The notes under the pieces were generated by a model. That model made no database searches. It was not told the DNA's origin and saw only the letters and a program-made list of their open reading frames with translations. Shown piece after piece: positions 9,784 to 60,151 of a stretch of 64,000 nucleotides of DNA. Made by a program: the position numbers and the translations under genes. The DNA comes from Dictyostelium discoideum. Taxonomy: Eukaryota. The stretch covers positions 2,688,001 to 2,752,000 of the forward strand of contig CM000154.2 of assembly GCA_000004695.1 (NCBI GenBank). Reading direction: 5' to 3'. Position 1 is the stretch's first letter; the number at the start of each line of letters is the position of its first letter.

Positions 9784-9926
9784 ATGAAATTATTAAGTTT
9801 TAAAAAGAAACCTTCATTAACAAAAAGTCAAAGTTGTCCAGATAAATTAAAGAATTTAAAAGAACAACAAAAAGATCCAAAGAATGGAGCCAATTATGAT
9901 ACTGCAACAATTAAATCTTATACATT

Positions 9927-9957
<31 letters not shown>

Positions 9958-12087
9958 AGAGAAGATAATAATATGATTAATAATGAAAATGAAGATTTTT
10001 CATTTAATTATTTTGATTATGATGAAGATCAAGAATCAACTTATAGTAGAGAAGAAAGATTATTCTTTTCAATTTGGAGAAATAATAAAATTAAAAGATG
10101 TATTTTCCATCATTTGGAGATATTCAATTTAATGAATAATATTAATGACCCAATTACATTGGACCAATTAAATTTAATTGACTCTGGTAAACTTAGAGAT
10201 TATTGTAAAATTGTAAAGATTGAAAAGAATGAAAAGATTGAATTGCAATGCATGCCAATTCCAAACCATATTGAGAAACTAATATTTTCAAATGAATTTG
10301 ATAAACCAATTAAAGCTGGAACCATTCCTCAATCAGTTGTAGAGATTGAATTTGGTGAGAAATTCAACCAAGTTTTAAAACAGGGTCAACTACCGCCATC
10401 ATTGGAGATTTTGAAATTTGGTAAAAGATTCAACCAAATGGTTACACATTCCACTGGTGAATTGCCAACATCTCTAACTACTCTTATATTCGGTAACAAT
10501 TTCGATCAAATCATTCTAAAGAATTTCATACCACCAAATGTATCAACATTAATATTTGGTTTAAACTTTGATCAACCTTTATCACCTGGTTACATTCCAT
10601 CCAGTGTCACTAAACTTGAATTTCAAGAGAACTTTAATCAACCATTAACCATTGGTACAATTCCAAAAAATGTTAAACATTTGAAAATATTTAGTAAATT
10701 CCCATTAAATCAAGGTGCAATCCCACAAAGTTGTACAACACTATACTATGGTGGTGATTGTAATCAAGGTACAAAGAATATACCAGATTCCGTTAAATCT
10801 TTACATTTCCTTCAATCAATTGATTGTAATAACCTCACTAAAGAAAGATCATTATCAAAATCATCATCATCAATATCATTAGATATTAGTGGTGGTGGTA
10901 GTGGTAGTGGTAGTGGTGTTAATTCAACAACAACAAGTGAAAAAATAACTTTTTTACAACCTGAATCAATTTGTAAATCAGTTACAAATTTAACAATTGA
11001 ATTAAATCAAGGACCACCAAATAAGAAATATTTACCAATGAATTCAGTTACTCAATTGTCACTTGGTATTAATGAATTTAAAAAACCATTGAAATCAAGT
11101 TATATTCCAAATTGTTGTACTTCATTATTATTAAATATTGGTCCAGATTATAAATTTCAACAATTATTATCAAAATCAATACCATCATCAGTTACAGCTT
11201 TACAATTTGGTCCAAATTTTAATTTAACTATTATGCCAAATTCTTTACCAATTCATTTAAGATCAATTGATTTCGGTGATGGTTTTAATCAACAACTCTT
11301 ACAAAATTCTTTACCAACTTTAATTGATTCAATTAAATTTGGTAATTCTTATAATCAACCAATTTCAAATAATGTTTTATCAAATTCAAATTATTTAACA
11401 TCAATTGAATTTGGTAAATCATTTGACCAACCTTTAATCATTGGTAATGGTATTGGTAATTTAAATAATAATAATATAAATAATAATGTTACAAATTCAA
11501 ATTTACCAATAACATTAAATAAATTAAAATTTTCAAAAGATTCAAATTTTAAAAGTTTATTAAAAATTGAATCAGATTCAATGATTGAAGAGATTGAATT
11601 TGGTGATCAATATAATGAAGAATTTAATAATCAATGTTCTTTAGGTTGTACTCATTTACTTTCAATTAAATTTGGTGAAAATTTTAATCAACCAATTAAT
11701 AATTTACCAATTTCAATTAAAAAATTAATTTTTGGAAATTCATTTAATCAATCAATCAAAAATTTACCTGAAAATTTAACATCTTTATCTTTAGGTACCT
11801 CTTTTTCTCAAAATTTAATTAATTTACCAAATTCATTAATTGAATTAAAAATGTTTAATAAGGATTTTTTAAATAATTTAAATTTTAGTAATAATAATAA
11901 TGAAAATAATAATGAAAATAATAATGAAAATAATAATGAAAATAATAATGAAAATAATAATGAAAATAATAATAATACCAATAGTTTCAATGATTTTATA
12001 AAAAATACAACAATTAAGAGAATTAAAGTACCTTGTTTAATTACAACACTAAATTTTATTGTTGAAAAGAATAAATCTAAAAAGTAG
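9784..12087 (+). CDS. FNIP-repeat protein (767 aa), single exon
   Basis: More than 15 tandem ~22-aa repeats carry the motif (I/L)xFGxxFNQ(P/x)(I/L)..(L/I)P.S(L/V), for example IEFGEKFNQVL, LKFGKRFNQMV, LIFGNNFDQII, LQFGPNFNLTI, IEFGKSFDQPL, IKFGENFNQPI. This is the FNIP repeat family that is expanded in Dictyostelium. The N-terminus has polyQ and the C-terminus has an (NENNNE)6 tandem repeat. Confidence 0.8.
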
Positions 12088-12508
12088 TTAAAAAAAAATA
12101 AAAAATAAAAAAATAAAAAAAAAAATAAAACAAGATAAAATTTAAAAATAAAATAAAATTCTTGGACCCAAACTAAATTGTTTTATTTTTTATTTTTTTT
12201 TTTTTTTTTTTAGGTTGGGGTTCTGGAAAAATAAAATGAAAATAAATTATTATTTTTTTTTTTTTTTTTTTTTTTTTAAGTTGTTCGTTGTTAAAATTTT
12301 ATTGTTTTGTAGTTGCTAATAATAATTATACAAATTTGGTGAAGTATAATTTACTGTTAAATAAATCTTATTTCGAGAAATGGAGTAAAAAAAAAGAAGG
12401 TTTTTTTTTTTTTTTTTTTTTTTTAAAAGGGTTAGCCTTAAAGAAATCTCTTTCAAATCCTTTCCATTTATAAATTTTTATTTATTTTATTTTATTTTAT
12501 ATTTTTTT

Positions 12509-12555
<47 letters not shown>

Positions 12556-12643
12556 GGCAGTCACCAAGAAAACAAAGAAAAAAAAAGATACCAACTGACC
12601 AACGCAGCACAAAATTACTTTTGGTGCGGAAATTTTTATATCA

Positions 12644-12680
<37 letters not shown>

Positions 12681-12735
12681 TTTTTTTTTTGTTTCAATTT
12701 AAAATTCTTTTCTCAAAATAAACAGACAGAGAGAA

Positions 12736-13855
12736 ATGAATAATAATATTAAATATGTATTTTTAATAATTGTAACATTGGTATTTATTAATAATGTCTA
12801 TTCAGAATCAACAAAAATTGGAGTTTTAAATAAAGATGATTGTAAAAATTAATTTTTCACCACTTATAAAAGAAAATAAAAAAAATAAAATTGTGTTACG
12901 GAGTAGAAATTAACTTTTATTTTTTTTTTTTTTGTTGGTGAAATAAAAAAAATTAAAAAATAAAAACTATATAGATGATTATATAGATAAATTAGTTAAA
13001 GATTTATTCAAGGAAAACCCTTTTCCAATTTTAAATGTAGATAAAGATAAAACCTATTATGACTACTGTTCAAAACCATTATTTAAATGTAATAGTGAAA
13101 CTGGTCATTTATCAGGAATGTAAGAGTAATTAAATTATTATTATTATTATTATTATTAATATAGGATACTAATTTCATTCTTCAAATGGGAAAAATTAGG
13201 CATTTAACATATGACGCAGATTTGTGCAAGATCAAATCATTGAAAAATGAAATCTCAAAATACGATTTTACTATCATGGATAGTATTGAACTTTCATTAT
13301 TTCCATTTGGTTCTCCAAAAATTTTAAGCAAACTCAATGCTCGTACAGTGTAGGTATTTAATTTAATTTATTTTATTTTATTTTGTTTTGCTTTATTAAC
13401 TTTTATTAATAACCACCAATTTTTTTTTTTTATTTATAGGAAAATATCACGATGTCATATTGATTCGCTTTTAATTGAACCAAACCCAAATACAAGAGAT
13501 TTGTAAGTATAAATTCTTTAAATTTAGCGATTGATTAATTAATACTAATGAATTATTTTTTTTTTTTTTTTTTTATTTTTTTTTTTTTTTTTTTCTTTCA
13601 AATTATTCAGATTTGTTGACTCAAATGACAATGTTAAAGTAGTGATGAAAACTATGGGAATGATTGAAAATTTGTGAGTATAGTTAGCTTTTTGATATTA
13701 TGCTGAAAAAAAATTTCTTTATCTAACAAAAAAAAAAAAAAAAAATTATAGCACTCTCACAAGTTCATTTGTAAGAAATTCATCAAAAACCATTACATTT
13801 GAAGTAAATGAAGACGAAGATGAATTTAATTTTAAAAATTGGTATGTTCACTAAA

Positions 13856-13946
<91 letters not shown>

Positions 13947-14227
13947 TTTTCATTCTTTTTGCAATAATTATTAATATCCACCCATTTTCTTTTATTCTTT
14001 TTTTCAAAATAAATACCAACAATAGGGACGTTTATTCAACAAATGTTCCTCTTTTCAAATATTTTCATTTTGATACATTGTAAAGTATAATAAAACCTTT
14101 TTTTTTTTTTTATTTTTAAAAAAACTAACTTTTAATTTCTCTATAGAAAACTTACAATTTTATCAAATGAAGGTCTTGACAAAACTAATAAATTTGAAGA
14201 CTATACTGAGATTACAAATTTGTAAGT

Positions 14228-14260
<33 letters not shown>

Positions 14261-14739
14261 CTTTTCTTTTTTTTTTTTTTTTTTTTTCTTTTTTCTTCTA
14301 AACAAATTTTTAATAACTTCTCTCTCTTTTTTTTTTTAAAAGTTATTTGTATAAATATAAATATTTTGATTTTGATCCTATTCCATTCCCAAGTGAAATT
14401 TTTATAGATAATCAAGAAACCATGTTTTTTGGTACAACATTTAGAATTTCACCTCCAAATGATTATTTGGATATTTCAAAAGCATCTTCCTTACTTGGAT
14501 TGTAAGTATAAAAAAAAAAAAAAAGAAAAGAGAAAAAAAAAAAATTAAAATAAAAATTGTTTTTGTTGTATATTAATTTTTTTTTTTTTATTTTTTTTTC
14601 AGGTCATTCTCAAATGCAGAGGGTTTTTTTTATAACGATAACAACACACTCCAATTCCCATTTTCAAAATTCCCTGAAGAACTTGATCAATTGTAAGTAG
14701 TATTACATTTTAACCATTAAATAAATACAGTTATTAATA

Positions 14740-14770
<31 letters not shown>

Positions 14771-16435
14771 TAGTTTTTATAAAAATAACAACCAAAGTAC
14801 TCCACTTCCAGATATTCAAAAACTCTTTGAAAATACTAAAATTCGTTATTTGTAAGTATAAACATTTTTTTTTATTTTTTTTTTATTTTTTTTTTAATCT
14901 CCTTTATTTGGTTATTAATTTTTTTTTTTTCTTTTTAAAAAGAGTTTTACCAAATAATAAATTTAGTGGTAAGATTAGTCCAATTAACATTCCAAGTTTA
15001 ATAAATTTGTAAGTAAAAATTATTTTTATTATTATTGTTATTATTTTTTTTTTTAAAAAAATATAAAAATTTATTAATAATAATTTTTAATTTTAGAGAT
15101 TTATCAAATAATGAACTTGTAGGTAAATTAGGAGATTGGATTTGTGGTATTGATAGTTTAAATGTTCAACATAATATTCTTCAAGGTAATGTTCCAATTT
15201 GTAAAATATGTTATGGTAGTGGTCTTTCATTGATTGAGAATAATAATTATTTCGATAGTAGAGAATGCAACGAAACAATTCTAGAAAGTTTAGACATAAC
15301 TACTAAGGAATATAATATTTCAAAAACAAATGAAGATAAGGATGAAGTTTATTCTATGATCTATGAATATATAGTTAAAGGTGAAGGATTGGCTTATGGT
15401 GAACATAAATTTACAACAAACCTTAATGATTATAATTATACTTTAGGAGGTTGGATTCAAGTTGGGAATACCTATAAACTTAATACCACTAAAATGGTTG
15501 AATCTATTGATTTCTTTTTCAACACATCGTCCCCTTTTTCTGCTACATTTGCAACTAAACCAGATTCAAAACCAAGAATTAACTCAATTATAAAAACAAC
15601 TGATGAAGTCAAGGATCCAAAAACCGATAAATACACAATTGAAGGTATATTTTTCTCTTCATTAATATCTGATGTTTCAGTTTCATTGCTTGAAGAGGGT
15701 GATGACGAATACCTTTCTCATCCATGTAAAGTATCAGAGTCAACATTCTATTCAATCACTGCATCATGTCCAAATGAATTACTTTTAAATTTAATTCAAG
15801 TTAAAGTGGGTCAACTTGATACTGGTCGTGTTGAATTCAATTCATCTTCGTCCTATAGTAAAATGTGTAAATCGGAATGTAGTGATAAAGTAAAAGCAAA
15901 TGGTGGAGGTTGCAATTATGATGTTGGTCTTTGTAAATGTCATAAAAGTAATTGTAGATCGGTTACTGTCGAGGTCACTGGTCAATGTCTCAATGATGAT
16001 AATGGTGATGCCTATTGTAGTTGTAACGAAAGATGGGAGGGTACCCTTTGCGAGATCGGAACTTGTTTTGGTTATGATGGTTGTAATTCTCCAAAAGGTG
16101 AATGTGATAAAGCAACATCAATGTGTCATTGTTTAGATAAAAATTTTAATAATGATTATTGTAATGGTACTAGAACTATTCCAGATGGTAAAAATAACAA
16201 TAATAATAATAACAACAACGGTGGTGATGGAGAAAATGGTCCATCATATGCCGTTGGAGTTATCTTCCTTTTCGTCGTTATCATTGGTGTTGCTATCTTT
16301 ATCTATAAAAGATATATTGATGGTTCCTCAAAATCAACCACTTCAAATGGTGTCAAATTTAAAGTTTTAAGTTCAAAACAAGAAGATGATGAAGAAGATA
16401 ATTTATCAACAACAAGAAAAGGTTATGAAGAATAG
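12736..16435 (+). CDS. Type I membrane protein with a signal peptide, plant-type leucine-rich repeats, a Cys-rich EGF-like region, a TM helix and a short acidic tail. Proposed exons: 12736..12841, 12975..13119, 13200..13349, 13440..13502, 13611..13673, 14147..14221, 14343..14501, 14603..14692, 14774..14851, 14943..15008, 15097..16435
   Basis: Exon 1 encodes MNNNIKYVFLIIVTLVFINNVYS (signal peptide). Exon 2 encodes an LRR N-cap-like ..YYDYCSKPLFKCNSETGHLSG. Then come several 63-90 nt exons, each encoding one LRR-like unit and each ending ..T(T/A)|GTAAGT in phase 2, so the junction codon is Leu/Ile/Val/Phe. Examples are L|VLPNNKFSGKISPINIPSLIN|L and L|DLSNNELVGKLGDWICGIDSLNVQHNILQGNVP. The last exon has six-Cys EGF-like modules (CKCHKSNC.., CSCNERWEGTLCE, CHCLDKNFNNDYC), the TM segment YAVGVIFLFVVIIGVAIFIY and a tail ending ..EDDEEDNLSTTRKGYEE. 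The gene call is solid. Individual acceptor choices for exons 2 and 3 are tentative because alternative in-frame AGs exist. Confidence 0.55.
13857..13944. repeat. (AAT)29 microsatellite inside an intron of the LRR gene
   Basis: An uninterrupted aat repeat. It is read as polyN in one ORF-track frame (13808..14083) but lies between the proposed exons 5 and 7. Confidence 0.9.
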
Positions 16436-17142
16436 AAAAAATTAAAAAAAAAATAAAAAAAAAAAATATAAAAATTAAAAAAAAATAAAAATAAAAAAAA
16501 AAAAAAAAAAAAAAAATTTATTTATTACAAGCAAAATATTACATCCAAAAAACAATATATTTATTTTAAAAAAATTGTTAAAATAAGAAAGAATTATTCC
16601 TAACTTTTTTTTTTATTTTTAAAAACTTTTTCCAGAAATTTTAATATATAAAAAGATTCTATTCCTTTAAATAAATAGGAAATTGTATTTTTTTTTTTTT
16701 TTCCTTTTTCAAATTTTCTAACTCAATTCAGGAAAAAGTAACTTTCATCCTTTTCATCACTATTAGAGATTTATATTAATAAAATCCATTGGCGACAAAT
16801 TTTTTTTTTTTTTTTTCCATTTCTCAAATTTTTTTTTTTTTTTATATTTTATAAAATTATCGGTGTGTGTGTGTTTTGGATAAGTTTATCAATTTATTTA
16901 TATGTTTATTTTGTTTTAAATAAAAATAGCGCAAGTTTGAGAAAAAATTTTAATTGAACATAAAAAATTTTTATTTATTTTTTTTTTTATTTTTTTATTT
17001 TTTTTCAATTAATTTTTTTTAATTTCAAAAAAAAAAAAAAAATCTTTTTTTGATTTTTTTTTTTTTTTTTTTTTTACCTTTTTTTTTTCTCATTAATATT
17101 TGTATTTATAAATAACAAAAACAAAAATAACATAAAAAGAAA

Positions 17143-39148: not shown

Positions 39149-39389
39149 ATTTAAATTAAAGTTAATAAAATAAAATAAAAAATAAATAATAAAATGGTAA
39201 ATTAAAAAAAAAAAACCTAAATCTATTTTAATTCTATTTTTAGTTATTTATTTTTTAATCTGCATTTTTCTCAGCTTAATTATTTCTTAAATCTCTAAAA
39301 AATAAAATTATAAAAAACTTAATAAAAATTAAAAAAACCTAAGAATATAATCTATTTTATCCTGTAAAAAAACTTTGTTTTCAACAAAT

Positions 39390-39462
39390 GCCCAGATAGC
39401 TCAGTCGGTAGAGCGCAAGGCTTTTAACCTTGTGGTCGGGGGTTCGAGCCCCCCTTTGGGCG
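39390..39462 (+). tRNA. tRNA-Lys (anticodon UUU)
   Basis: The 73-nt sequence GCCCAGATAGCTCAGTCGGTAGAGCGCAAGGCTTTTAACCTTGTGGTCGGGGGTTCGAGCCCCCCTTTGGGCG folds as a cloverleaf with a 7-bp acceptor stem including one G-U pair. It has an A box TAGCTCAGTCGG, anticodon loop CTTTTAA, B box GGTTCGAGCC and discriminator G. No CCA is encoded. A T6 Pol III terminator follows at 39465-39470. Confidence 0.9.
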
Positions 39463-39707
39463 AATTTTTTAGATGGAAGAATTTGATCGTAGGCTCGATT
39501 CCTAATCTAACCAATTAATATTATTTAAATTGTTTCTTTTGTGAATGAATCAAAGGAAAACTGTTAAATGTAATAACCATCTTTGGTTTATAATCTACAG
39601 AGAGGAATATTCATTAAAAGGCAATATTCCATTCTTTTGCTCTAGAATTAACATTATCGCACCTTCTAAATATGGTAACTTCTATTATAAAAAATATCAA
39701 AAAATCC

Positions 39708-39752: not shown

Positions 39753-40187
39753 TCTGATTAATCAATATTAAAAAGGCCTTGGAGTTTATTCCATATTAAA
39801 TTCAATGGTTTACATTTTTTTTGTCCTTCTTTTTATCTTTTATAAAAAAAAAAATCCTGTAGAAGGAGATCCATCTTTATTTTTAATAATTGCTTTTTAG
39901 AATTTGTATTACATTGTTTAATATTAATAAGTTTTAATAATCATAATATAAATAATAGTAATAATAATATTAATGATTAACAATTAAACAATAACAATTA
40001 AAAATAATAATTTATTTAGTTTTAGAGTTTTCGTTCAAAACTTATAAGTTGAAAATAACGAAAACTGAAAAAAATGAAAAAAATAATTCACGTTTTACAG
40101 CATTCATAATATTGTGTGTTCATTTATTTATTAAGATCAATACATCTAAAATTCCGAACTTCGGATTGTAGGAAATTATTCAAAAAG

Positions 40188-40259
40188 CTCCCTGTCCGGG
40201 AATTGAACCCGGGCCTTTCGCGTGACAGGCGAAAATCCTCACCACTAGACCAACAAGGA
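40188..40259 (-). tRNA. tRNA-Asp (anticodon GUC)
   Basis: The reverse complement TCCTTGTTGGTCTAGTGGTGAGGATTTTCGCCTGTCACGCGAAAGGCCCGGGTTCAATTCCCGGACAGGGAG is 72 nt. It has a canonical Asp-type D loop AGTGGTGA, anticodon loop CTGTCAC, T arm CCGGGTTCAATTCCCGG and a paired acceptor stem. A T5 run follows immediately on the minus strand (plus 40178-40185 region). Confidence 0.9.
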
Positions 40260-55898: not shown

Positions 55899-58002
55899 AT
55901 GAAATATTTATTAGTATATTTACACATATTACTATTTTGTTTATTAAAGATCAATAGCCAAAAGTATTGCACTTATAGTGGTGTTGGAGAAGATTATAAT
56001 ATCAAATTTGATGTCTTACAAACAAAGTATGTAATTTTTTTTTTTTTTCTTTCTCTTCTTTTTTTTTTTTTTTTTTTTTAAAAAAAAAACCTAATTATTT
56101 TTTCTTAAACGTTCAAACAGTGGTGGTATTGGTTTTCTATACTCATATTTAAGTGTTATTTTTACAACTTGTAATTATACTATTCCTTGTGGTAGTAATA
56201 GTAATAATGTATTGTGTGGATCATATCATTCAACTGTTCCACGCAAGTATCTTTCATTGGGATTTGTTAATGGCAGTACACATAGTTATAGCAAAGACGG
56301 ACTAATGATAACATATATATCACAGGATACAACAAATGATAATGATTGCAAAAGATATACAACAAATGTGATTTTTCAATGTAGACCAGATGGTGATGTA
56401 TCCGATTCATTAGATGTTGGCATCGACAATATACTTATTGATTCATGTATTGTTGAATTCACACTCTATTTACGTACAGTGTGTCAAACATGTCCAAACT
56501 GTTTAAAAACACATCAAACATCATGTAATGTGAAAAGTGGTTGGTGTACTTGTGATGGTAATACAAAAGGTTTAAATTGTGATCAATTAAATGCAAATAT
56601 ATCATCGGTATTAACACCAACAATTAGTGGTGGTGATGTTATAATGTCTGGTGATTTTTCAAATATTTATAATATTAGCTCAAGTATTACAATTTCAATT
56701 GGTACTTCAATTTGTAATAGTGTTATTTTCTCAAGTAATAAATCACAAATCAAATGTACGATAGGTGCAGGTGAAGGTGATCAACAAATTAAATTATCAG
56801 ATGGAAATGGTGCAACATTAATATATGATGGATTTTATTATAGAGCTCCTTGTTCAGTCGAATGTTCACCATTTGGTAAATGTAATGATCACGTTGGTAA
56901 TTGTATTTGTAATGATGTTGCAATTGGTACAGATTGTAAAACTTTAAATTTACAATTAGATTCAGTAACACCAACATTTGTAACTGGTGGTCAAGTTTAT
57001 TTAAATGGTAATTTCCTAAATGTCAAAGATCTTAGTCTAACTATTAAAATCGGTGATATAGAATGTTCAGATGTTAAATTCAACGATACTAATTTCAAAG
57101 TTTTGCAATGTATAATTCGAAAAGGTGAAGGTATTAAAGATATTATAATATCATCAGGTTTGCTATCATTTTCAAAAGCAAAAGCATTCGAATATCAATA
57201 CTACAAATGTCCACTCAATTGTTCAACACCAAATGGTACTTGTGATAATAATACTGGTAATTGTACATGCCATAATGAACATTTTGGTAATTCTTGTGAA
57301 TTTACTCGATGTCCACTCGATTGTTCGACACCAAATGGTACTTGTGATAATAATACTGGTAATTGTACATGCCATAATGAACATTTTGGTAATGGTTGTG
57401 AATTCACTCAATGCCCACTCTATTGTTCAACACCAAATGGTACTTGTGATATTAATAGTGGTATTTGTACATGTGATAATGAACATATTGGTAATGGTTG
57501 CGAAATTAAATTTATTGAATGTAAACATAAATGTTCAACCAAACATGGAATATGTGATAATGATAGTGGTAATTGTAAATGTGATACTCAAACAAAAGGA
57601 TTAACGTGTGAAGAATCAAGATTATTAATTGAATCATTAGACTCAATCAATTCAAAAGGTGGTACAATAAATATAATTGGTTATTTTGGAAATACAACAT
57701 CATTATTAACAATTAAAATTGGTGAATCACAATGTAAAAATATCAAAGTATTCAATGAAACAACATTAAAATGTGATATTGGTGAAGGTAAAGGTATTCA
57801 TAATATTACAATCATTGATGATGACCTTTCGTTCACAGCAATCAATAAGTTCCAATATCTCGATGAAAAAACAAAAATCTCAAAAATATCGAGAGGTGCA
57901 ATTGCTGGTATTGTTGTTGGTTGTGTTGTTGCTGTTTCATTAATTGGTTCTATTGCTTTTTATTATCATCACAAAAATAAAAAGGTTAATCTTTTCTTCT
58001 AA
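55899..58002 (+). CDS. Type I membrane protein with a signal peptide, MRH-like (mannose-6-phosphate receptor homology) domain, TIG/IPT-like domains, EGF-like repeats and a TM segment; exons 55899..56026 and 56121..58002
   Basis: Exon 1 encodes MKYLLVYLHILLFCLLKINSQ.. with a GTATGT donor at 56027 and an AG at 56119-20 (phase 2, junction Asn). The N-terminal region KYCTYSG..YNIKFDVL..CNYTIPCGS..LCGSY..DGLMITYIS..DCKRYTTNVIFQCRPDG..SCIVEFTLYLRTVC fits the MRH Cys/aromatic pattern. IPT/TIG-like segments follow (ISGGDVIMSGDF..ISIGTSICNSVIFSSNKSQIKCTIGAGEGDQQIKL; VTGGQVYLNGNF..IKIGDIECSDVKF..VLQCIIRKGEGIKDI; INIIGYFGN..IKIGESQCKNIKVFNETTLKCDIGEGKGIHNI). There are five tandem CxxxCSTPNGTCDNNTGNCTCHNEHFGNxCEF EGF-like units. 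The TM segment is IAGIVVGCVVAVSLIGSIAFYY. Confidence 0.7.
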
Positions 58003-59556: not shown

Positions 59557-60151
59557 TTGCATTTATAAAGGTTTTGATTGAAGGGGTAGTATTTAACAAT
59601 AGATTATTAAATTAATTTCATTATCAAATAAAAAAATAAATATAAAACTATATAAAATGAATTGGGGGCAAAAGTAAAACAAAAACACATCTCTCCTAGA
59701 TAGATTGATGATGTTTTTTAATTCTCAATTTAATTTTAATAATTTTAAAATTTTTTATTTTTCATTAATATTAAGGGTTTGGGAGAGGTAGCACTCTTTT
59801 TATAAACTCTGAAATTGTGCAATACAGAGCGAATGCTATTTTAGATGTAATAAAGGCATGCCGATATCATAACATCTAAACCTCGAATAAAAAATTATTT
59901 TAAATTCGAATGCTTTCACTTAGAAAGCAAGAACGATTTTAAACGTTCTAGAACAGATACTACACTTGATTAAAGCTATTACGCTTCAAGAAGAATTGTG
60001 ACTTATGCTTTATTAAGGCAAAAAGTGATTTGATTTGTTTTTTTATTCTTCCTTTATATTATTATTAATAAAATTATAATTTTTGGGAAAAATATTTTTA
60101 ATTCTTTTGAATTAATTACAACAATTAAAAAAACATTGTTGAAATTCCATT

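Follow-up and report, generated by a model that had tools for sequence, protein, structure and literature searches.

How does a gene come to be divided so that one intron after another interrupts the same codon position of successive protein repeats? The question is raised by a locus in a 64,000-nucleotide (nt) stretch of the genome of the amoebozoan Dictyostelium discoideum (contig CM000154.2 of assembly GCA_000004695.1, forward-strand positions 2,688,001 to 2,752,000; here called the window, in whose numbering all positions are given), for which an earlier note had proposed a gene of leucine-rich repeats (LRRs) encoded by one-repeat exons. The gene is found where it had been placed, at 12736-16435 (+). 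With the ATG at 12736 as start and the stop codon at 16433-16435 as end, GT..AG introns chained along the natural first acceptors yield 13 exons, 12 introns and a single open frame of 825 codons, and in a protein search the spliced product of 825 amino acids (aa) matched DDB_G0295675, an annotated protein of D. discoideum AX4, with 100% identity and 100% coverage. The peptides quoted in the earlier note (VLPNNKFSGKISPINIPSLINL; DLSNNELVGKLG...NILQGNVP) are present in this product, and its 11-exon model gives way to one of 13 exons (Table 1). The gene is real and already annotated, under the label 'EGF-like domain-containing protein'; as a described protein it is absent from the literature, in which a search by gene ID gave no paper.

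Intron phase and repeat register

In DDB_G0295675 a first intron of phase 1 is followed by introns 2-12, which are all of phase 2 (11/11), a uniformity greater than had been claimed and one that, at a generous 1/3 per intron, would arise by chance with p ~6e-6 by our own arithmetic. The ten internal exons 3-12 are all 2-2 symmetric (150, 63, 63, 90, 54, 75, 159, 90, 78 and 66 nt), so that the small exons span 54-159 nt and not the 63-90 nt first reported. Eight of these exons carry one LRR each; exons 3 and 9 carry two each. The codons split by introns 2-12 are, in order, ATG, GTG, TTA, TTC, TGG, TTA, TTT, TTG, TTT, TTA and TTA, encoding M, V, L, F, W, L, F, L, F, L and L, and all but TGG (Trp206) follow the TTN/ATN/GTN pattern read from the sequence earlier. 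The accompanying rule that every exon ends in (A/T)T followed by GTAAGT proved too strict: (A/T)T closes 9/11 of the exons before phase-2 introns (the other two end in GT and TG), and GTAAGT is the donor in 6/11, the remainder being GTAAGA, GTAGGT, GTGAGT, GTATGT and GTAAAG.

In an alignment of the repeats that takes the split residue as position 0, a hydrophobic residue stands at position -3 in 9/11, at position 0 in 11/11 and at position +2 in 11/11, against a regional background of 0.37; the phase-2 introns therefore cut the codon of the first hydrophobic residue in the 'xxLxLxx' core of the LRR beta-strand. At position 0 a hydrophobic residue is in part dictated by the terminal T of the exon; at +2 and -3 hydrophobicity is independent of the splice site. 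The repeats, of 18-33 aa, have the LxxLxLxx(N) core of LRRs, with N or S frequent at +4/+5. One repeat boundary, at Leu401 in exon 13, carries no intron. The gene thus shows a one-LRR-per-exon architecture of uniform phase, with introns at the same position of the repeat and 10 symmetric exons, conserved in five genomes.

The comparative evidence comes from four orthologues in three species (D. cf. discoideum, 75% identity; two assemblies of D. citrinum, 59-60%; D. firmibasis, 50%), whose loci were retrieved and whose annotated proteins were each mapped back onto their own DNA. All four have 13 exons with one phase-1 intron followed by 11 of phase 2, and the junction residues at introns 1-12 are Y, M/I, V, L, F, W, L, F, L, F, L and L. 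Between species, exons always differ in length by multiples of 3 and introns do not. Exons have a G+C fraction of 0.16-0.33 (0.21-0.33 for exons 2-13) versus 0.05-0.18 for the introns, which are AT-rich in a window of ~22% G+C. At larger distances the exons are better conserved than the introns, e.g., with identities of 0.60-0.77 and 0.22-0.59, respectively, against D. firmibasis. Downstream synteny with a PCI-domain gene and a CBM49 gene is retained in the orthologue loci. The longest intron, intron 6, reaches 184 nt through ~30 TAA/AAT units at 13856-13946; because the orthologous introns in the other four genomes are shorter (116, 100, 95 and 65 nt), this microsatellite is expanded in D. 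discoideum. Rfam and tRNA scans gave zero matches within 12000-17000, so that no hidden RNA gene lies in the introns of DDB_G0295675.

Predicted domains and evolutionary rate

The order of domains in the protein is a predicted signal peptide, an N-terminal cap with a Cys pair, ~14 LRRs in one predicted solenoid, a C-terminal cap, two predicted beta-sandwiches, ~three EGF-like modules, a transmembrane (TM) helix and a 42-residue tail. That this is an LRR receptor-like gene, as had been proposed, is borne out by a profile of the five orthologous proteins, which matched plant LRR-receptor ectodomains among PDB sequences (GSO1, 5e-26; also FLS2, BRI1 and PEPR1). All 60 PDB matches listed are plant proteins, and they pass repeatedly through profile positions ~335-420, which correspond to exons 11-13. 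The plant-like consensus ascribed earlier to the repeats at large is accordingly supported, from sequence matches, for the last three or four repeats only. The recommended search with Pfam models returned weak LRR matches below threshold and none to EGF models: in the D. discoideum protein LRR_4 scored 19.7 bits (cut-off 27) and LRR_1 14.5 (cut-off 20.6), and in the orthologues the best E-values were 6.2e-5 for LRR_1 and 0.044 for LRR_8. The N-terminal cap reads C-x6-C-x4-G-x-L-x2-M-x-L (13067-13126 when spliced) and resembles the plant LRRNT_2 cap (C-x6-C...G-x-L-x2-L-x-L) by pattern only, the Pfam model LRRNT_2 not being detected at E<=10.

The repeats were also followed in structures predicted with AlphaFold2 (AF2). 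In the full-length model (mean pLDDT 56) all 11 junction residues lie in beta-strands, and extra strands within exons 3 (aa 110-116) and 9 correspond to the second repeats of these exons. The predicted structure is a curved solenoid with one beta-strand per repeat, and its top Foldseek matches are BRI1 and TLR8. The models suggest, with modest confidence, that the degenerate repeats of the small exons belong to one continuous solenoid of ~14 repeats.

The EGF-like Cys modules and the TM helix noticed earlier are recognized by pattern, in the 16 Cys of aa 637-735 and in the hydrophobic maximum at aa 764-783. The EGF signature C-x-C-x5-G-x2-C (CSCNERWEGTLC and equivalents) is present in 5/5 orthologues, in which the 16 Cys are invariant. 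A profile of the C-terminal half found only insignificant matches in the PDB, to defensins and Notch EGF repeats (Notch E 0.24-0.9). No kinase domain was found, and the 42-aa tail is without any Pfam domain. A type-I glycoprotein of the cell surface would be in keeping with the N-terminal signal peptide and with the 12 sequons for N-glycosylation. The TM helix and tail are the best conserved part of the protein across species (aa identity 0.77-0.97); this conservation, in an otherwise fast-evolving sequence, suggests a conserved intracellular partner or a sorting signal. The tail itself (16307-16432, aa 784-825) begins KRYIDGSSKSTTSNGVKFKVLSSKQEDDEEDNLS.

Within Dictyostelium, the closest parallel in layout is ComC, with LRRs, beta-sandwiches, EGF-like modules, a signal peptide and a TM helix, a layout implied by the set of Pfam families that includes LRR_ComC (PF24141) and Beta-sand_ComC_2nd (PF24143) (PMC4931340 Table 3); both proteins are restricted to group-4 dictyostelids. 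LRR_ComC was built on a Dictyostelium LRR and EGF membrane protein and does not match DDB_G0295675 at E<=10, and the likeness of the second sandwich to Beta-sand_ComC_2nd stays below threshold (16.9 bits versus a cut-off of 27, in 1/5 orthologues). A literature search on comC and lagC returned no papers. The earlier view of the architecture as interesting in an amoebozoan was overstated, given this existing family and the >150 LRR proteins that D. discoideum encodes (PMC5758549).

No paralogue of DDB_G0295675 was found in the 64-kb window with tblastn of the protein, and neither of two large protein searches found a full-length relative beyond the D. discoideum species group. The profile of five orthologues gave 9,390 matches, generic LRR proteins aligning at profile positions ~335-420; the C-terminal half took part in none of the best 150 of these, and no paralogue or distant orthologue was identified among them. 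A word-indexed search with the alignment of the C-terminal half scored nothing, the orthologues included, and is treated as uninformative.

The protein evolves fast. The ratio of nonsynonymous to synonymous substitutions (dN/dS), obtained by the Nei-Gojobori method for pairs of orthologues, is 0.58-0.69 for the whole gene, compared with 0.02-0.05 for the adjacent PCI-domain gene (protein 99% identical), used as a control in the same genome pairs. By region it is 0.61-0.84 in the LRRs, 0.5-1.1 in the sandwiches and 0.27-0.40 in the EGF-like part; the EGF-like and TM and tail regions mostly give 0.27-0.45, apart from a TM and tail value of 0.81 between D. discoideum and D. cf. discoideum that comes from very few substitutions. 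Within the LRR domain, conservation is 0.84-0.94 at beta-strand positions 0 and +2 to +5 and 0.40-0.66 in the loops. Diversifying selection on the concave LRR face, of the kind known for plant R genes, is disfavoured, the beta-strand positions being the most conserved of the domain. Ancient balanced polymorphism is rejected: dS between the two D. citrinum assemblies is 0.076 versus 0.070 in the neighbouring gene, so that the excess lies in amino-acid change and not in old polymorphism.

Origin of the exon array

A comparison of intron positions with plant LRR genes, called for in the earlier note, can draw on published work on rice LRR-kinases (PMC3050792): their introns, of phase 2, fall within the codon for the first Leu of xxLxLxx and set off one or more repeats, and those of DDB_G0295675 agree with them in both position and phase. 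Plant genes for LRR receptor-like kinases (LRR-RLKs) and receptor-like proteins (RLPs) share with it an extracellular LRR solenoid (predicted here), the LxxLxLxxNxLxGxIP consensus in its last repeats, short exons of one or two repeats bounded by such introns and a type-I membrane topology, and its short kinase-less tail resembles that of RLPs. Unlike plant LRR-RLKs, however, DDB_G0295675 is without a kinase domain and has irregular exons of 54-159 nt, not mostly 72 nt; unlike plant receptors in general, it has highly degenerate repeats 1-10 and carries beta-sandwich and EGF-like modules after the LRRs, outside which there is no homology. Phase-2 exons of one LRR are also known from vertebrate gonadotropin receptors and brown-algal ROCO genes (PMC11378527) and, on a massive scale, from the 90-bp exons of Tetrahymena (PMC6564038), and uniform-phase arrays of this type are taken as the signature of exon duplication or shuffling (PMC11378527, PMC6564038). 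DDB_G0295675 resembles them in its tandem, frame-symmetric exons of about one LRR with phase-2 introns. The published arrays differ from it in exons of strictly one length (72 or 90 bp) and in their many paralogues, and those of the algae and ciliates are recent expansions with nucleotide similarity, whereas DDB_G0295675 is a single gene without a paralogue, its exons vary in length and no similarity is left between its units. It neatly illustrates a layout well known in plants, animals, brown algae and ciliates.

The reading that we favour, and hold to be probable as a whole, is that of a single-copy 13-exon gene for a receptor- or adhesion-like type-I membrane LRR glycoprotein, whose exon array arose by old duplication of exon units. 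Tandem duplication of a one-LRR exon together with its phase-2 intron would have built the array, copying the position and phase of the intron with each unit; later divergence would have followed, with loss of some introns giving the double-repeat exons 3 and 9 and the intronless boundary at Leu401. Duplication or shuffling of exons, as suggested in the earlier note, is consistent with the uniform phase and position but is not demonstrated, since the units are without nucleotide similarity: a DNA repeat search found none among the exon-intron units, which share only poly-T/poly-A and (TAA)n low-complexity families. Recent duplication is rejected on this ground, and exons of 54-159 nt likewise lack the uniform length of a recent array. 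Because no nucleotide similarity between units remains, the duplication would have long preceded the split of D. discoideum, D. citrinum and D. firmibasis. At the plasma membrane, its most likely location to judge from the architecture, the protein would bind a ligand from outside the cell with the beta-sheet on the concave side of its solenoid, and the sandwich and EGF-like modules would serve as a stalk. Partners bound to the conserved tail would mediate its signalling or sorting, as in a plant receptor-like protein without a kinase or in an adhesion molecule of the LRR type.

Several points weigh against this reading. The support for the 13-exon model comes from annotation identity and comparative conservation; the Pfam LRR matches lie under curated thresholds, repeats 1-10 are very degenerate and the two AF2 models are of modest confidence (mean pLDDT 56 and 62). 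The units have no DNA or protein similarity beyond the LRR consensus, so that duplication is inferred from intron position and phase only. Weak constraint would be compatible with the whole-gene dN/dS of 0.58-0.69, and the literature search by gene ID gave nothing on a ligand, on expression or on a phenotype of DDB_G0295675.

The agreement with plants could instead mean that the intron-bearing one-LRR exon is an ancient or laterally acquired module, common to plant LRR-receptor genes and retained here by Dictyostelium. An intron position and phase identical to those of rice LRR-kinases, the 60 plant LRR proteins that make up the listed PDB matches and the plant-like pattern of the N-cap speak for it, and D. 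discoideum genes have ~1-2 introns on average, among which 12 introns would be an outlier. However, independent exon duplication fits equally well with a phase-2 layout that recurs in vertebrates, brown algae and ciliates, the plant-like character is confined to the last 3-4 repeats, the introns are typical AT-rich Dictyostelium introns and the C-terminal half has no plant counterpart, so that retention of such a module seems rather unlikely. A bolder version, in which intron position and phase, repeat consensus and N-cap would all reflect plant-amoebozoan common descent or lateral transfer and exon skipping in Dictyostelium would vary the number of repeats of a fast-evolving surface receptor for bacteria or kin, is very unlikely. 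Joining of exon 6 directly to exon 8, 12 or 13 would produce a TGA codon.

The lack of sequence similarity between introns, the range of exon sizes (54-159 nt) and the missing introns between the repeats of exons 3 and 9 and at Leu401 would agree with parallel gain of an intron in each repeat, at a favoured target resembling a proto-splice site and without duplication of units. This would take 11 gains at one codon position and phase in an intron-poor genome, far less parsimonious than duplication, divergence and occasional loss, and the exon ends, mostly TT, are unlike the classical MAG/R proto-splice site; of all the explanations it is the least probable. Barely more credible is that DDB_G0295675, as a gene specific to its lineage, is under weak constraint or in decay and has no specific receptor function. 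Its dN/dS, reaching 1.1 in the sandwiches against 0.02-0.05 for the PCI-domain gene, and the lack of any relative found beyond the D. discoideum species group would agree with decay. Yet in an AT-rich lineage prone to TAA stops an intact open reading frame (ORF) of 815-854 codons with 12 correctly phased introns is retained in five genomes at dS up to ~0.6, conservation extends to most Cys (20/26 of those in the D. discoideum protein), to the core positions of the LRRs and to the cytoplasmic tail, and the EGF-like and TM and tail regions mostly have a dN/dS of 0.27-0.45 (the one comparison at 0.81 having very few substitutions).

Feature map, surroundings and meaning of the locus

Table 1. Exons, introns and predicted protein regions of DDB_G0295675 in window coordinates (introns 2-12 are of phase 2; a slash marks the exon junction within a split codon).
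Feature	Position	Strand	Evidence
Whole gene, start to stop codon	12736-16435	+	intron chain, identity to annotated protein, same structure in 4 orthologues
Exon 1, 106 nt: predicted signal peptide aa 1-23 MNNNIKYVFLIIVTLVFINNVYS and start of N-terminal region	12736-12841	+	AF2 helix aa 5-22
Intron 1, sole phase-1 intron	12842-12974	+	
Exon 2, 145 nt: N-terminal cap, Cys pair C67/C74; end falls within first LRR strand	12975-13119	+	
Intron 2, phase 2	13120-13199	+	
Exon 3, 150 nt, 2-2 symmetric: two degenerate LRRs; junction GT/G (Val134)	13200-13349	+	
Intron 3	13350-13439	+	
Exon 4, 63 nt: one LRR; junction TT/A (Leu155)	13440-13502	+	exon chain, repeat register, AF2
Intron 4	13503-13610	+	
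Exon 5, 63 nt: one LRR; junction TT/C (Phe176)	13611-13673	+	exon chain, repeat register, AF2
Intron 5	13674-13751	+	
Exon 6, 90 nt: one long LRR, acidic loop; junction TG/G (Trp206)	13752-13841	+	
Intron 6, carries (TAA)n microsatellite	13842-14025	+	
Exon 7, 54 nt: one short LRR; junction TT/A (Leu224)	14026-14079	+	
Intron 7	14080-14146	+	
Exon 8, 75 nt: one LRR; junction TT/T (Phe249)	14147-14221	+	
Intron 8	14222-14342	+	
Exon 9, 159 nt: two LRRs; junction TT/G (Leu302)	14343-14501	+	extra AF2 strand marks second repeat
Intron 9	14502-14602	+	
Exon 10, 90 nt: one LRR; junction TT/T (Phe332)	14603-14692	+	
Intron 10	14693-14773	+	
Exon 11, 78 nt: one LRR; junction TT/A (Leu358)	14774-14851	+	
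Intron 11	14852-14942	+	
Exon 12, 66 nt: one canonical plant-type LRR VLPNNKFSGKISPINIPSLIN; junction TT/A (Leu380)	14943-15008	+	
Intron 12	15009-15096	+	
Exon 13, whole	15097-16435	+	
Exon 13, start: final two LRRs DLSNNELVGKLGDWICGIDSL / NVQHNILQGNVP and Cys-containing C-terminal cap (CKICYG)	15097-15217	+	
Exon 13, aa 440-636: two predicted beta-sandwich domains	15275-15865	+	AF2 strand pattern, pLDDT ~55-85
Exon 13, aa 637-735: 16 Cys, ~three EGF-like modules including CSCNERWEGTLC	15866-16162	+	pattern in 5/5 orthologues
Exon 13, aa 764-783: single predicted TM helix YAVGVIFLFVVIIGVAIFIY	16247-16306	+	hydropathy maximum; AF2 helix aa 765-788
Exon 13, aa 784-825 and stop: predicted short cytoplasmic tail, Ser/Thr-rich, acidic	16307-16435	+	

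Directly upstream of DDB_G0295675 lies a single ORF of 767 aa with FNIP-type repeats (IPxSVxxLxFGxxFNQ; 9784-12087, +), and an FNIP-repeat gene is likewise the upstream neighbour in D. citrinum. Between long T runs 100-180 nt 5' of the start codon, in an intergenic region that is otherwise very rich in A+T, a short G+C-richer island at 12552-12640 (+) reads GGGCAGTCACCAAG...CCAACTGACCAACGCAGCAC...GGTGCGG; it has no Rfam match and could be a promoter or 5'-untranslated region element. The downstream multi-exon gene (17144-~19000, +), whose orthologues have a PCI domain, is the one that served as rate control. Elsewhere in the window the EGF part of DDB_G0295675 has a sole, weak tblastn match at 57220-57393, within an ORF of 596 aa (56212-58002, +) predicted to be another type-I membrane protein with a C-terminal TM helix, in which several near-identical EGF-like repeats CPLNCSTPNGTCDNNTGNCTCHNEHFGNSCE are interleaved with beta-rich segments. 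The window further contains a full-length U2 spliceosomal small nuclear RNA gene (59784-59996, -; Rfam RF00004, 92.5 bits) and a convergent pair of tRNA genes ~0.7 kb apart, tRNA-Lys(UUU) at 39389-39463 (+) and tRNA-Asp(GUC) at 40187-40259 (-).

In all, the finding is confirmatory: the gene was annotated, its architecture is well described and the field is left unchanged. It adds an amoebozoan case to the LRR genes with one-repeat exons and phase-2 introns, and the presence of an intron at the exact codon position used in plant LRR-kinases bears on whether this architecture had an ancient or a repeated origin. DDB_G0295675 also stands out as a lineage-restricted LRR protein of predicted surface location, with unusually many introns and fast evolution, in a species whose LRR proteins may include pattern-recognition or adhesion receptors (PMC5758549).

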